Below, one piece after another: positions 12,780 through 41,572 of a DNA stretch of 64,000 nucleotides (its first letter is position 1; each line of letters starts with the position of its first letter). The translations under genes were made by a program, and so were the position numbers. Origin of the DNA: Alphaproteobacteria bacterium (GTDB taxonomy: Bacteria; Pseudomonadota; Alphaproteobacteria; MPNO01; UBA830); NCBI GenBank assembly GCA_965243135.1, contig OZ251539.1, positions 1,504,001 to 1,568,000 of the forward strand, written 5' to 3'. Below the pieces are notes generated by a model. The model made no database searches, was not told the origin of the DNA, and saw only the letters and a list, made by a program, of their open reading frames with translations.

Positions 12780-13994
12780 ATGGCGACGATGGCGGCTAGG
12801 GCGGCCGGGCATTCACCCCGCGTCTGGGGGAAGTTCGGTTGGGAAGATCCGATGAAGCTGGACGAACAGCTTACCGAGGACGAACGAATGGTGCGGGAGA
12901 CGGCCCGCCAGTACGCGCGGGAAAAGCTGATGCCGCGGATCGTCGACGCTTACAACGAGCAGCGCGTGGACAGGGACGTAATCCCCGAAATGGGCCAGCT
13001 CGGCTTGCTCGGTTCGACCATTCGCGGATACGGCTGCGCCGGCGTCAGCTACGTCGCCTACGGTCTGATCGCCCGCGAGATCGAAATGGTCGATTCGTCG
13101 TATCGATCGACGCTGTCCGTGCAGTCGAGTCTCGTCATGTGGCCCATCTACAACTACGGGACCGAGGAACAGCGCCGGAAATACCTGCCCGGGCTCGCCA
13201 GCGGCGAGTCGATCGGAGCGTTCGGCCTGACGGAGCCGGATCACGGGTCGGATCCCGGCGGCATGAAAACCCGGGCGGTCAAGGCGGACGGCGGCTATCG
13301 GCTGAACGGCAGCAAGACCTGGATCTCCAATTCGCCGATCGCGGACTTGTTCGTAGTTTGGGGCAAGGACGACGAGGGCATCATCCGAGGCTTCATTCTC
13401 GAGCGCGGCATGGAGGGCCTGTCCACGCCGAAGCTTCACAACAAGCTCAGCTTGCGGGCTTCCGTCACGGGCGAAATCGTCATGGACAACGTCTTCGTTC
13501 CGGACGAGAACTACCTTCCCGAAGCGCGCGGGCTCGGGGGTCCCTTCGGCTGCCTCAACAACGCCCGCTACGGCATCGCATGGGGCGCGCTCGGCGCCGC
13601 CGAGTTCTGCTGGCAGGCGGCGCGCGGCTACGCGCTCGACCGCACCCAGTTCGGCAAGCCGCTCGCTTCCTATCAGCTCGTCCAGAAGAAGCTCGCCGAC
13701 ATGCAGAGCGAGATCTTCATCGGCTATCAGTCCTGTCTCCGCATGGGCCGGATGATGGACGACGGATCGTGCTCGCCGGAGCTGATATCGATGCTCAAGC
13801 GCAATTCCACCGGAAAGGCGCGGGACATTTGCCGGGACGCCCGCGACATCCACGGCGGCAACGGCATCATGGACGAATACCACGTCATGCGGCACTTGAT
13901 GAACATGGAAACGATTTACACTTACGAAGGCACGCACGACATCCACGCGCTGATCCTCGGGCGGGCGCAGACGGGCATCCAGGCGTTCTTCTGA
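12780..13994 (+). CDS. gcdH: Glutaryl-CoA dehydrogenase
   Basis: [54 protein letters not shown]. Confidence 0.93.
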
Positions 13995-14016
13995 GGCCGC
14001 CGCGCCGGGGCGCGCC

Positions 14017-15240
14017 ATGGTCCGGCCGCTGGAGCATGTCCGCGTACTCGATCTGAGCCGCATCCTCGCCGGGCCGTGGGCGGGGCAGACCTTCGCCGAT
14101 CTCGGCGCGGAGGTCATCAAGATCGAACGGCCGGGCAGGGGAGACGACACGCGAGCTTGGGGGCCTCCCTACGCAGTCAGTCCTGATGGCGGGGAAACGG
14201 GCGAATCGGCTTATTTCCTGTCGGCCAACCGCGGCAAGAAATCGGTGACCGTCGACCTCGGCAAGCCGGAAGGCCAGGAGGTCGTCCGAGCCCTGGCGGA
14301 AACGTCGGACGTGTTGATCGAAAACTACAAGGCTGGCGGCCTGGCGGCGTACGGGCTCGATTACGAGGCGCTACGGCGGGTCAACCCGCGCCTGGTGTAC
14401 TGCTCCATCACGGGATTCGGACAGACCGGCCCGTACAGCGGCCGCGCCGGTTACGATTTCCTCATTCAAGCCATGGGCGGCCTGATGAGCGTCACGGGAG
14501 AGGCGGACGACCGGCCGGGCGGCGGCCCTCAAAAGGTCGGCGTCGCGCTGACGGACATCGTCACCGGGCTGTACACGACCGTCGCCGCGCTTTCGGCGCT
14601 CGCATGGCGCGAGAAGACCGGGCGCGGCCAGCACGTGGACATGGCGCTGCTGGACGCGACGGTCGCCGCGATGGCCAATCAGGCGATGAATTACCTGATC
14701 GGGGGCAGGGCTCCGGAACGGATGGGCAATGCGCATCCGAACGTGGTTCCGTACCAAGCCTACAAAACGGCCGACCACTACGTCATTCTCGCGGTCGGCA
14801 ACGACGAACAGTTCAGGAGGTTCTGCGAAGTCGCGGGCCGTTCGCAGCTGGCGGACGACGAACGCTTCGCGACCAATCGCGCCAGGGTGGTCAACAGGCG
14901 CCTGCTGGGCCCGATTCTCGACGAGGCCATCGGATCCAGGCCGCGCGCCTTCTGGCTGGAAGAGCTCGAGAAGGCGGGCGTTCCCTGCGGGCCGATCAAC
15001 GATCTGGCGCAGACGTTCGGCGACCCGCATGTCCTGGCGCGCGGCATGCGGCGCGAGCTTGAGCATCCGACCGCGATTTCGGTTCCCACGGTGGCGAATC
15101 CGATTCGGTTCTCGGAATCTCCCATCGAATACGACCGCGCGCCGCCGACGCTCGGTCAGCATACGGAGGAAATTCTGTCCGGCTTGCTCGGCAAGGACGC
15201 CTCGGAGATCGAGCGATTGCGGGAAATCGGGGCTATCTGA
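14017..15240 (+). CDS. CaiB/BaiF class III CoA-transferase (probable succinyl-CoA:glutarate type)
   Basis: DLSRILAGPW, GDDTRAWGPP, ANRGKKS, GVALTDI; directly downstream of gcdH. Confidence 0.85.
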   Translation: MVRPLEHVRVLDLSRILAGPWAGQTFADLGAEVIKIERPGRGDDTRAWGPPYAVSPDGGETGESAYFLSANRGKKSVTVDLGKPEGQEVVRALAETSDVLIENYKAGGLAAYGLDYEALRRVNPRLVYCSITGFGQTGPYSGRAGYDFLIQAMGGLMSVTGEADDRPGGGPQKVGVALTDIVTGLYTTVAALSALAWREKTGRGQHVDMALLDATVAAMANQAMNYLIGGRAPERMGNAHPNVVPYQAYKTADHYVILAVGNDEQFRRFCEVAGRSQLADDERFATNRARVVNRRLLGPILDEAIGSRPRAFWLEELEKAGVPCGPINDLAQTFGDPHVLARGMRRELEHPTAISVPTVANPIRFSESPIEYDRAPPTLGQHTEEILSGLLGKDASEIERLREIGAI

Positions 15241-15317
15241 ACTGGGTCCGCGAGCCGTCTTGACCGCGCCGCGGCCGTTCGTCATCCTTTGCGCGTCAGC
15301 ATCGGGGACATCGCTTC

Positions 15318-15821
15318 ATGGCGTTGCCTGCGACGGACGAGGCCAAGCGCGAAGCCGGCGCCGCGAAGGACGGCGCGCCGGCTTTCGCGCTCCGCAAGCA
15401 GGTCGGCCATCTGCTGCGCCGGGCGCATCAGCGTCATACGGCGATCTTTCAGGCGATGATCGGCGACGGCCGGGTGACGCCGTTGCAGTTCGCCGTTTTG
15501 ACGACGCTCGCGGACATGGACGAAGCGTCGCAGAATCATCTCGGCCGTCTCACGGCCATGGACGCGGCCACCATGCAGGGCGTGATCAAGCGTCTGCTCG
15601 CTCGCGGGTTGATCAGGCGCCGCGCGGACCCGGGAGACCGGCGGCGCCTGCTGCTCACGTTGTCGGGGGCGGGCGAAGAGTTGGTGGCCGAGGTCACGGA
15701 TCGCGGCCACGCGATCAGCGAACGAACGCTGGAACCGCTGTCGGCCGCCGAACGGAAGACCTTTCTCCGCTTGCTCGGTCGCTTGTCGAGCAGCCCCGCT
15801 TCGAGGCGGCCCGTCGCCTAG
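15318..15821 (+). CDS. MarR family transcriptional regulator (NicR-like)
   Basis: QVGHLLRRAHQRHTAIF, SQNHLGRLTAMDAAT, DRRR wing. Confidence 0.85.
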   Translation: MALPATDEAKREAGAAKDGAPAFALRKQVGHLLRRAHQRHTAIFQAMIGDGRVTPLQFAVLTTLADMDEASQNHLGRLTAMDAATMQGVIKRLLARGLIRRRADPGDRRRLLLTLSGAGEELVAEVTDRGHAISERTLEPLSAAERKTFLRLLGRLSSSPASRRPVA

Positions 15822-40141: not shown

Positions 40142-40285
40142 AGCCGGACGGGCTTGACGTCCTGTCCTGACATTTCGGCAAGCGGGCAACTCCTGCGACA
40201 GGCCAACGTCAGTTCGCGGGTTCGGCCGCGCCTCGTCGAAGGGTTGGTCGCGGCCCTGCGCGCCAAGAGGAGAGGAACGGGCGGC

Positions 40286-40318
40286 GCGGCGCTTTCCCGC
40301 ACCTGCGGAAAGCGCCGC
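40286..40318. terminator. GC-rich hairpin between convergent genes
   Basis: GCGGCGCTTTCCCGC-ACCT-GCGGAAAGCGCCGC, one bulge, no clear U-tract. Confidence 0.4.
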
Positions 40319-40379
40319 TGCGGAGGCGCTGCGTTCCGGAGGCGCGGCAGAACTTGCTGGACGGCTCCGCGGCGCCCGT

Positions 40380-41572
40380 TTACGCCACTAACTCAGGGAC
40401 TCGTTCCGCCGGCGGCGTATTCCGGCTGCGGCCGCAGGCAACGCTGCCGTCGATGACGACCATCCCGATCCCCGGCATGTCTCCCAGCCGGACCGCTTCG
40501 AGAACGTCCTTCCCGGCGCTGTGTTGCGGCCGGTCGAGAAACACGAAGTCCGCAGCGCGTCCTTCTTCGATGAGGCCGCAATCGAGTTCGCGAACCCGCG
40601 CGGTGTTGCCGGTCGCGAAGCAAAACGCGATTTCGGCCGCCACGTCTCCCAAGGACGACAGCATCGCAATCATGCGGAGGATTCCGAGCGGCTGCACGCC
40701 GGATCCCGCCGGTCCGTCGGTGCCGAGAATCACCCGTTCCGTCTGGCCGAGTTCGGCGGCGGTCCGAAGAGCGAACAGCGCCGCCTTTTCGTTTCCGTTG
40801 TGAACGATTTCGATTCCCGCCCGGCACTCCTCGCACAGGCAGCGGATCTGGTCGAGGGGAAGGGCGGTATGGCCGCCGTTGATATGACCGATGATGTCGG
40901 CGCCGGCTTCCAGAACGATGTCCTTGTCGATCAGACCGGACCCGGGAATCGACGGCCCGCCGGTGTGGATCGTCGACTGGAGGCCGTATTTGCGGGCCCA
41001 ATCCACCATCTGCCGCGCCTCGTCGCCCGCCTTGACGCTGCCGAGGCCGATCTCGCCGAGCAGTTTCACGCCGGCTTCGGCGAGTTCCTTGAAGTCCCGC
41101 TCCTCCATGCCCTTCTCGAGGATCGGAGCGCCCGCGTGCACCTTGACCCCCCCCGGCGGAAAGGCGGAGAAGGCGCGCTGCGCCGTGATGCCGAGCGCAA
41201 CGACGCCCTTGGGATCCTTCGGCCGTCCCGGGAGGTGGACTTCGCCGGCCGAGATCATGGTCGTGACGCCGCCGTTCATCGAGGAATCGATCCAGTTCAC
41301 TGGTTCTGCCGCGGCGTCCAGTCTCCGAAGACCGGATGGACGTGGCTGTCGACAAGACCGGGACAGAGGGCCGCGCCGTTGGCGTCGATCACGAGGTCGG
41401 CACCGTCCGCATCGATGTCCTTTTCCTTGCCGAAAGCGGAAATCCGGCCGTCGATCGCAATCAGCGCGTCGGCGTCGAGCACCGGATTTTCGAGGGCTCC
41501 GGACAGCATCAGACCGACGTTTCGAATGACGGTCTTTCCCTTGGGCGCCGTTCTTCCGGCGGGTGCGGCCAT
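40380..41572 (-). pseudogene. ena: Enamidase-like amidohydrolase split by a 1-nt frameshift (41297-41572 and 40380-41300)
   Basis: N part: PGLVDSHVHPVFGDWTPRQNQ then TGA. C part in another frame: NWIDSS.NGGVTTMISAGEVH, HTGGPSIPGS, GHINGG, VHNGN, GTDGPAGSGV. Confidence 0.75.

Follow-up and report, generated by a model that had tools for sequence, protein, structure and literature searches.

Conserved linkage of nicotinate ring-reduction genes to a glutarate module in an order of Alphaproteobacteria suggests a route to glutaryl-CoA

Nicotinate fermentation in Eubacterium barkeri reportedly depends on a gene cluster, described by Alhapel et al. in 2006, in which ndhFSLM, hnr, and ena are followed by hgd, hmd, mgm, mii, dmdAB, and dml. 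For Azorhizobium caulinodans, Kitts et al. are said to have worked out the nicotinate biochemistry in 1989 and 1992, with 2-formylglutarate losing CO2 and the product being oxidized to glutarate, which is then turned into glutaryl-CoA; to our knowledge, the steps from 2-formylglutarate to glutarate have been without assigned genes since 1992. The aerobic maleamate pathway of Pseudomonas putida is encoded by a nic cluster comprising nicAB, nicC, nicX, nicD, nicF, and nicE together with the gene of the MarR-type regulator NicR. As far as the accessible text of PMC3511419 goes, three routes from 6-hydroxynicotinate are summarized there, and an ndh-hnr-ena cluster is reported for A. caulinodans (AZC_2804-AZC_2790) and Bradyrhizobiaceae, with a route via glutarate; this Azorhizobium-type cluster is described as holding the first three steps only, plus an ABC transporter and two unknown proteins. 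The E. barkeri fermentation cluster is cited in the accessible parts of PMC3511419 and PMC9304392, and those of PMC6667623 name glutarate among the intermediates of nicotinate catabolism and describe a gcdH-gcoT module in P. putida. Here, we analyze a stretch of 64,000 nucleotides (hereafter, the window) from an alphaproteobacterium of marine type (GenBank assembly GCA_965243135.1, contig OZ251539.1, positions 1,504,001 to 1,568,000), in which homologs of ndh, hnr, and ena lie close to gcdH and a CoA-transferase gene.

The window has a G+C content of about 65% and belongs to a 98.8% complete genome assembled in one contig (genome G000; C1 denotes coordinates on its contig). Genes were mapped using codon-position G+C, Pfam and NCBIfam models, and solved structures; hnr and ndhF, whose open reading frames (ORFs) run on upstream, were placed by frame plots and homology. 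Comparisons were made at three depths: 12 relatives from four families (other G numbers), for which 30 kb on each side of hnr were retrieved; 78 genomes of the order, with families labeled f1 to f5; and a wider set of 80 hnr loci (L049-L128) from other Alpha- and Betaproteobacteria, located with an alignment of 5 Hnr sequences, an alignment of 17 being too diverse for the locus scan. The genomes counted are kin, and the order-wide counts overstate their independence, though the genomes span four families and many genera. The initial annotation, which listed ndh-like genes, hnr, moaA, an enamidase gene, gcdH, a CoA-transferase gene, and a regulator gene within 30 kb, proved accurate in this respect: every one of them is present at positions 12780 to 41572, a range extending exactly from the start of gcdH to the start of the enamidase gene (Table 1).

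We consider it probable, at roughly 0.6, that the region represents an alphaproteobacterial version of the reductive nicotinate pathway of the E. barkeri and Azorhizobium type, joined physically to a general glutarate-burning module. Of the 78 genomes in the order, 67 had hnr, 71 had gcdH, and 63 had both. The two genes were on one contig in 41 genomes, in 32 of which they were no more than 30 kb apart; sorted by family, these same-contig genomes showed linkage within 30 kb in 9/9 (f1), 1/1 (f3), 20/20 (f4), and 2/11 (f2) cases. Both gcdH and the CoA-transferase gene were found within 30 kb of hnr in 7 of the 12 relatives. Thus, the gene-neighborhood comparison around hnr and ena, which the initial annotation had suggested, reveals the association but confines it to this order. 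The linkage is a feature of the order and not of proteobacterial hnr clusters generally, because it is mostly absent in f2, because gcdH occurs in f5 in the absence of hnr, and because only 3 of the 80 wider loci are linked. Within the order, the conserved linkage supports, at the level of genes, an ending of the pathway from glutarate to glutaryl-CoA.

Domains, structure matches, and the names of homologs show that the upper-pathway genes ndh, hnr, and ena are real and orthologous to those of the E. barkeri type. Chains S, L, and M of the E. barkeri nicotinate dehydrogenase (3HRD) match consecutive parts of the fused subunit of the molybdenum (Mo) hydroxylase with 132, 288, and 228 bits, and we predict from this likeness that the enzyme is a putative nicotinate 6-hydroxylase. 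In the 80 wider loci, ndhF lies upstream of hnr in 59 and the fused ndh gene in 67. Neither Pfam nor NCBIfam models matched Hnr, whose homologs of 73 to 82% identity bear the name 6-hydroxynicotinate reductase from their sources. More distant forms of about 510 amino acids (38 to 46% identity) carry an N-terminal 4Fe-4S dicluster extension and are named "4Fe-4S dicluster domain-containing." This cysteine-rich extension is present in 13 of 17 aligned Hnr sequences and absent from the window Hnr and its 68%-identical representative, and four cysteines are invariant in the alignment (C8, C11, C15, and C25).

On the glutarate side, the acyl-CoA dehydrogenase of the window is a true glutaryl-CoA dehydrogenase, judging by its scores against human GCDH (577 bits), Burkholderia GcdH (567 bits), and solved GCDH-type structures (567 to 592 bits); other acyl-CoA dehydrogenases and oxidases reached at most 266 bits. 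The family III CoA-transferase encoded directly downstream has its best NCBIfam match with the succinate--glutarate CoA-transferase model, at 527 bits and hence under the cut-off of 750, and matches human SUGCT with 377 bits. It is probably a succinyl-CoA:glutarate CoA-transferase of the GcoT/SUGCT type. The genome encodes 12 further family III CoA-transferases.

The initial annotation had remarked on the absence of a B12-dependent methyleneglutarate mutase, and this holds for the window and for the genome alike. No B12-binding or mutase domain was detected among the scanned window ORFs, and the B12-binding domain PF02310 had no match in the whole G000 genome, while the same search produced matches in 12 of 14 control genomes. 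Because of this genome-wide absence, the B12 branch of E. barkeri is excluded in G000. A separate observation is that G000 possesses three cobalamin-independent MetE-like paralogs.

In the window, ena is split over two abutting frames. Positions 41300 to 41572 match residues 2 to 80 of the E. barkeri enamidase (2VUN; E value, 6.5e-17), positions 40380 to 41300 match its residues 82 to 384 (E value, 2e-89), and the HxH metal motif is present as HVH. One base is missing at the frame join (41298/41299), and public contigs from 4 of 4 sequencing runs have one additional base at 41298 or 41299; two of these are near identical to the assembly (depths, 140 and 6) and may represent its own source, and two are metagenome contigs, which are separate data. 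In all 6 relatives having ena nearby, the N- and C-terminal parts of the enamidase abut in a single frame. Because the extra base occurs in the contigs of all four runs, the break stems from an error in the assembly, and the organism itself carries an intact gene. A programmed or genuine frameshift in ena is ruled out by the same contigs. Errors of this sort may also underlie further apparent frameshifts in the one-contig assembly.

Two side observations concern the ring-opening step. In 57 loci with full flanks, drawn from L049-L128 and the 12 relatives, the genes next to hnr were either ena only (21 loci), hydantoinase/oxoprolinase A/B genes (hyuA/B) only (22 loci), or neither (14 loci), and never both (Fisher's exact test, P = 1.8e-6; the loci are kin and hence not independent). 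Two genomes of genus g10 without an ena ortholog belong to the hyuAB loci. This exclusion suggests an alternative, possibly ATP-dependent, ring-opening enzyme. Furthermore, C1:1876421-1878145 contains two adjacent paralogous genes, one for a DUF1185 protein with 39% identity and one for an enamidase-like amidohydrolase with 41%, and in G021 an enamidase paralog lies 2 kb from a Mo-hydroxylase paralog. The paralogous DUF1185/amidohydrolase pair may represent a sister pathway for another N-heterocycle.

Two sets of genes between gcdH and ndhF may provide Hnr with electrons. The 2-oxoacid:ferredoxin oxidoreductase genes korAB (TIGR03710, 653.9 bits; cut-off, 482.75) have ndhF or hnr as their direct neighbor in all 12 relatives, and korA is found in 9 of the 80 wider loci. 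The gene of an FprA-type reductase adjoins korB in 10 of 12 relatives and is less frequent in the wider loci. E. barkeri Hnr uses reduced ferredoxin. Because of this property and because the window Hnr lacks the dicluster domain, Kor and/or FprA probably charge a ferredoxin that feeds low-potential electrons to Hnr. Kor could also supply succinyl-CoA to the CoA-transferase. Being single-copy and kept in f5 genomes without hnr, korA is not a gene dedicated to the nicotinate pathway.

According to the initial annotation, the region holds the lower branch from 2-formylglutarate to glutaryl-CoA. This is supported for its last part, since gcdH and a probable glutarate CoA-transferase gene are linked to the cluster, whereas for the part from 2-formylglutarate to glutarate the region offers candidates only, namely, the two DUF1185 proteins a and b, an orphan Mo subunit, a cysteine hydrolase, and a UbiD-family decarboxylase. 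DUF1185a is encoded in 10 of 12 relatives and in 34 of the 80 wider loci. DUF1185 structures (PDB 2QTP and 3BYQ) carry no assigned function, and an earlier paper on the family, in its accessible part, remarks on ABC-transporter neighbors and not on nicotinate. The paralogous pair elsewhere in the genome hints that DUF1185 proteins work together with enamidase-like amidohydrolases. For the orphan Mo subunit, the best NCBIfam model was glyceraldehyde dehydrogenase alpha (548 bits, under the cut-off of 790). Orthologs of the cysteine hydrolase are 79 to 90% identical in G002, G003, G004, and G008 and 66% identical in G020. UbiD orthologs of 75 to 91% identity are encoded beside gcdH in G002, G003, G004, and G020, and a role of UbiD as an accessory or funneling enzyme is possible. 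G000 contains large catabolic paralog families, with 28 further UbiD-family matches and at least 29 further matches to Mo-hydroxylase large subunits.

Taken as a pathway, these genes would act as follows. The Mo enzyme, composed of the FAD (flavin adenine dinucleotide) subunit and the fused iron-sulfur (FeS)-Mo subunit, would hydroxylate nicotinate to 6-hydroxynicotinate, which Hnr would reduce to 1,4,5,6-tetrahydro-6-oxonicotinate with ferredoxin electrons from Kor and/or FprA. Ring opening by the enamidase would yield 2-formylglutarate and ammonium, and decarboxylation and oxidation of 2-formylglutarate by the conserved candidates would lead to glutarate. The CoA-transferase would then form glutaryl-CoA from glutarate and succinyl-CoA, the latter possibly made from 2-oxoglutarate by Kor, and GcdH would convert glutaryl-CoA to crotonyl-CoA, with the MarR protein encoded downstream as the likely regulator. 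It is tempting to speculate further, though we hold this extension to be doubtful, that a supply module dedicated to the pathway in this order lets an "anaerobic" ring reduction run in aerobes. Here, Kor, acting on 2-oxoglutarate, would give both the electrons for the domain-less Hnr and succinyl-CoA, with FprA as a second input; the DUF1185 pair, which has a chorismate mutase fold, would be an enamine/formyl-acid tautomerase-decarboxylase, and the orphan CoxL-like Mo subunit would be a glutarate-semialdehyde oxidase.

The regulator gene downstream of the CoA-transferase gene had been termed NicR-like. Its product belongs to the MarR family, but nothing closer than family level connects it to NicR, and no NCBIfam model matched above its cut-off. 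Orthologs are encoded in 8 of 12 relatives and, beside ndhF and with at least 45% identity, in 28 of the 80 wider hnr loci, and the protein is probably a regulator of the pathway. In the spacer between korA and ndhF or hnr, 8 of 13 genomes carry a palindromic box with a 10-base core; it is an almost perfect inverted repeat (8 + 2 + 8 bases) whose center contains GTAC (for instance, at 29749 and 29918 in G025 and at 29772-29926 in G021). Further copies were found in G008, between the genes of the orphan Mo subunit and DUF1185b, and in G027, beside the MarR gene. The box is likely an operator, perhaps that of the MarR protein. With as many as 3 mismatches allowed, its 18-base form had no match in the window, and a plain listing of palindromes showed nothing shared. 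Promoter and terminator consensus scans of the window returned no more matches than in shuffled sequences, and Rfam models had none in the window.

A number of observations weigh against the interpretation of the region as a nicotinate pathway joined to a glutarate module. The gcdH gene is single-copy, its next best genome match being only 36% identical, and so are korA and korB; family f5 has no hnr, yet gcdH is present in 4 of its 5 genomes and korA is kept at 73 to 74% identity in 4/4. In 9 of the 11 same-contig genomes of f2, a distance of 58 kb to 3 Mb separates gcdH from hnr, and in 22 of the 63 genomes having both genes they are on different contigs, which makes these genomes uninformative. 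Within 10 kb of hnr, the pair of gcdH and the CoA-transferase gene occurs in only 3 of the 80 wider loci, the module being absent from the other 77. The palindromic box was found neither before gcdH in any of the 13 genomes nor in G000, G002, G003, G004, and G028, in searches that did not include a weight-matrix scan for weaker copies. Among the scanned window ORFs there was no aldehyde dehydrogenase or recognizable beta-formyl-acid decarboxylase, the orphan Mo subunit has no adjacent FeS or FAD partner, and a six-frame motif search of the window for a ferredoxin gene returned spurious frames only. In addition, a gene for a protein of about 300 amino acids that follows hnr in relatives is missing in G000, where moaA occupies its place (32599-33925). 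No RNA run was listed among the public sequencing runs that contain the stretch. The copy numbers, the f5 and f2 genomes, the wider loci, and the lack of a shared operator before gcdH would all agree with a neighborhood without shared function, in which gcdH and the CoA-transferase gene, korAB, and the FprA gene serve housekeeping (lysine, tryptophan, glutarate, and central metabolism) and are adjacent by inherited order, so that nicotinate carbon may exit otherwise; according to the accessible text of PMC6667623, gcdH-gcoT indeed stands alone as a glutarate module in P. putida. We nevertheless regard this explanation as unlikely. The linked genomes (32 of 41) come from four families, and the f5 genomes have gcdH and korA either on separate contigs or at distances of 73 kb to 1.6 Mb; where the two are close, nic genes lie between them. 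Moreover, the regulator gene that follows gcdH and the CoA-transferase gene encodes the nic-associated MarR protein and not a LysR-type GcdR (the neighbors of gcdH are the UbiD and MarR genes, and no LysR gene is present there), and with no B12 domain in the genome no other exit from 2-formylglutarate is encoded.

The substrate itself might be different or broader, with 6-hydroxynicotinate coming from elsewhere or with pyridine dicarboxylates or N-methylated pyridines being funneled into the pathway by the orphan Mo subunit, UbiD, the quinolinate phosphoribosyltransferase (QPRT)-like protein, and the cysteine hydrolase, so that nicotinate would be one of several substrates or none. This is consistent with the second Mo large subunit that 8 of 12 relatives encode within the cluster, the UbiD and QPRT-like genes beside gcdH, the recurrence of a VanA-type Rieske oxygenase gene near the cluster, and f4 genomes that hold hnr, korAB, and gcdH together and the Ndh ortholog on another contig. 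We think it rather improbable, however, considering that ndhF directly precedes hnr in 59 of the 80 wider loci and fused ndh does so in 67, that the E. barkeri Ndh chains cover the fused subunit end to end, and that, in what is accessible of PMC9304392, Hnr and Ena of the sole characterized system use intermediates derived from 6-hydroxynicotinate. A pathway decaying in this strain, with a broken ena, a lost gene downstream of hnr, and mobile or foreign insertions, is very improbable. It would explain the ena frameshift of the assembly, the replacement of the gene for the approximately 300-amino-acid protein by moaA, and the multicopy element between the DUF1185b gene and ena; against it, the frameshift is absent from the contigs of 4/4 runs, two near-identical ones among them, the other pathway ORFs are all open and 70 to 90% identical to those of same-genus relatives, and a homolog of the missing gene is located at C1:3769866-3770711. 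A nicotinate pathway joined to a glutarate module is the reading we prefer.

The initial annotation described the pathway genes as dispersed. This does not hold beyond G000, the genes forming a compact block of about 20 kb in relatives and owing their spread in the window to insertions. In G004, a member of the same genus, everything from the hydrolase gene to the UbiD gene is contained in about 20 kb, in the order UbiD, gcdH, CoA-transferase, FprA, korBA, ndhF, fused ndh, hnr, DUF1185a, orphan Mo subunit, DUF1185b, ena, and hydrolase, and none of the genes inserted in G000 was among the matches. The block at 17245-23851 is mostly specific to G000. One protein encoded in this block unusually combines a cytochrome P450 and a GPP34 (Golgi phosphoprotein 3-like) domain in a single chain; its gene adjoins that of a sulfotransferase and is near that of the FprA-type reductase. 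As the initial annotation had stated, moaA is present, but as a strain-specific insertion and not as a member of the conserved cluster. Positions 32772 to 33862 are 97.6% identical in DNA to C1:4280991-4282088, and moaA is a recent strain-specific duplicate. The gene that it replaces encodes a conserved protein of about 300 amino acids, to which Pfam assigns no domain, and is located after hnr in 11 of 12 relatives and in 50 of the 80 wider loci; the homolog in G000, 2.2 Mb off, is 61 to 65% identical (63 to 65% to same-genus copies). The AAA-ATPase_like/PDDEXK_9 gene preceding ena has 26 other places in the genome with at least 1 kb at 85.6 to 92.7% identity, and its family behaves like a mobile element. 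A piece of about 180 bases (58418-58599) resembling the 3' end of this gene recurs at 44 other places, and a second AAA-ATPase_like gene is found at 61053-62630.

Table 1. Features of the region, given as positions in the window
Feature	Positions	Strand	Remarks
UbiD-family (prenylated flavin mononucleotide-type) decarboxylase	11247-12812	-	Divergent from gcdH; PF01977, PF20696; TIGR00148, 264 bits, above cut-off
gcdH, glutaryl-CoA dehydrogenase (glutaryl-CoA to crotonyl-CoA + CO2)	12780-13994	+	Three acyl-CoA dehydrogenase domains
Family III CoA-transferase	14017-15240	+	PF02515, 455 bits; 22-base gap after gcdH, same strand
MarR-family regulator	15318-15821	+	77 bases after CoA-transferase gene, same strand
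FprA/adrenodoxin-reductase-type NADPH:ferredoxin reductase	15818-17134	-	Mycobacterium tuberculosis FprA (1LQT), 333 bits
MetE-like gene	17245-18462	-	Among relatives only in G002
GPP34-P450 fusion	18500-20497	-	0/12 relatives
Sulfotransferase	20534-21676	-	0/12 relatives
DAO-type FAD oxidoreductase	21957-23258	+	0/12 relatives
166-amino-acid protein	23351-23851	+	No Pfam match; in G002, G003, G008
korB, 2-oxoacid:ferredoxin (acceptor) oxidoreductase beta subunit	23894-24928	-	
korA, 2-oxoacid:ferredoxin oxidoreductase alpha subunit	24933-26933	-	Divergent from ndhF; with beta subunit gene spans 23894-26933
ndhF-like FAD subunit of Mo hydroxylase	27529-28419	+	PF00941, PF03450
Fused subunit with two 2Fe-2S clusters and molybdopterin part (NdhS + L + M)	28398-31148	+	One chain, 916 amino acids; Pfam domains; putative nicotinate 6-hydroxylase
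hnr, 6-hydroxynicotinate reductase homolog, short form	31145-32599	+	In frame of long ORF starting at 28394
moaA	32742-33851	+	Not in conserved cluster; 0/12 relatives within 30 kb of hnr
DUF1185 (PF06684) protein a	33925-34713	+	True start probably near residue 60-70 of ORF
Orphan CoxL/aldehyde-oxidoreductase-like Mo large subunit	34739-37036	-	YRGAGR motif; 8/12 relatives
DUF1185 protein b	About 37444-38169	+	Pfam domain from residue 52 of stretch; 7/12 relatives
AAA-ATPase_like + PDDEXK_9 gene	38420-40141	+	Between DUF1185b gene and ena; absent from this position in relatives
ena, enamidase	40380-41572	-	Split over two abutting frames in window
Isochorismatase-family cysteine hydrolase	41596-42312	-	Directly upstream of ena, same direction
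TRAP DctM-type permease	42937-44532	+	89-90% identical in G002, G003, G004, G008
EamA transporter	44567-45454	+	65-81% identical in G002, G003, G004, G008

Several neighboring genes recur with the cluster. The TRAP permease and the EamA transporter are possible candidates for uptake functions. A second family III CoA-transferase and a VanA-type Rieske oxygenase are encoded at 48965-51206 and kept near the cluster in G002, G003, G004, and G008; in G025, the Rieske oxygenase gene is located between the CoA-transferase and MarR genes. In 93 clustered hnr neighborhoods, genes similar to those of the Rieske oxygenase and the second CoA-transferase recur in 9 and 22, respectively. Beside the UbiD gene, positions 8038 to 11189 contain a QPRT-like gene, the gene of a 591-amino-acid Glycos_transf_3/PYNP_C protein, and a YdhR-like gene. 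This group is kept in G003, and a QPRT-like gene is also found near the UbiD gene in G020; the group may link pyridine dicarboxylates to the nicotinate genes. Upstream of the region, the window encodes a Fic-domain protein (2596-4224) and a YhgA-like transposase (4864-5988).

The cluster offers gene-level support for the glutarate ending of the pathway and a short list of candidates for two enzymes without genes. It also points to a way in which a ring reductase that depends on ferredoxin may be supplied with electrons in a bacterium respiring oxygen. These ideas can be tested by ordinary genetics and enzymology in culturable relatives, e.g., Pelagibius, Reyranella, Bosea, and Azorhizobium.

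Compared with the nic pathway of P. putida, the region shares an initial Mo enzyme, which would likewise hydroxylate nicotinate, and a MarR-family regulator. In contrast, no 6-hydroxynicotinate monooxygenase or 2,5-dihydroxypyridine dioxygenase was seen in the window, and the ring would be reduced and hydrolyzed instead of being oxidatively cleaved. The gcdR-gcdH-gcoT locus of P. putida, in the accessible description of PMC6667623, resembles the window in that gcdH is followed on the same strand by a CoA-transferase gene, in the window probably also of the glutarate type, and the two are probably cotranscribed. Unlike in that locus, the adjacent regulator in the window is not the LysR-type GcdR but a MarR protein of the group encoded beside ndhF in other hnr clusters, and the gene pair is embedded in a nicotinate cluster.

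With E. barkeri, the region has in common the first three enzymes, namely, a putative Mo-dependent nicotinate hydroxylase that has FAD, 2Fe-2S, and Mo parts, a homolog of Hnr, and an enamidase whose match to 2VUN is full length. It differs in the fusion of Ndh S, L, and M, in an Hnr without the dicluster domain, in the absence of the B12 mutase branch, and in the attachment of the glutarate genes, Kor, and FprA. The likeness to Azorhizobium extends to the proposed chemistry (6-hydroxynicotinate, a tetrahydro-oxo intermediate, ring opening, glutarate, and glutaryl-CoA) and to the cluster core with its unknown proteins, which are probably the DUF1185 pair. Relative to the Azorhizobium cluster as described in the accessible text of PMC3511419, the window has gcdH, the CoA-transferase gene, korAB, and the FprA gene linked to the core and encodes TRAP and EamA transporters instead of an ABC system. 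We found no literature linking gcdH/gcoT or korAB to hnr clusters, in a search that left subscription journals largely outside. The ndh-hnr-ena cluster of Proteobacteria with its glutarate route and the gcdH-gcoT module are already known from what is accessible of PMC3511419 and PMC6667623, respectively; new are the conserved joining of these modules with Kor and FprA in one order, the fused Ndh, the domain-less Hnr, and a defined list of candidates.

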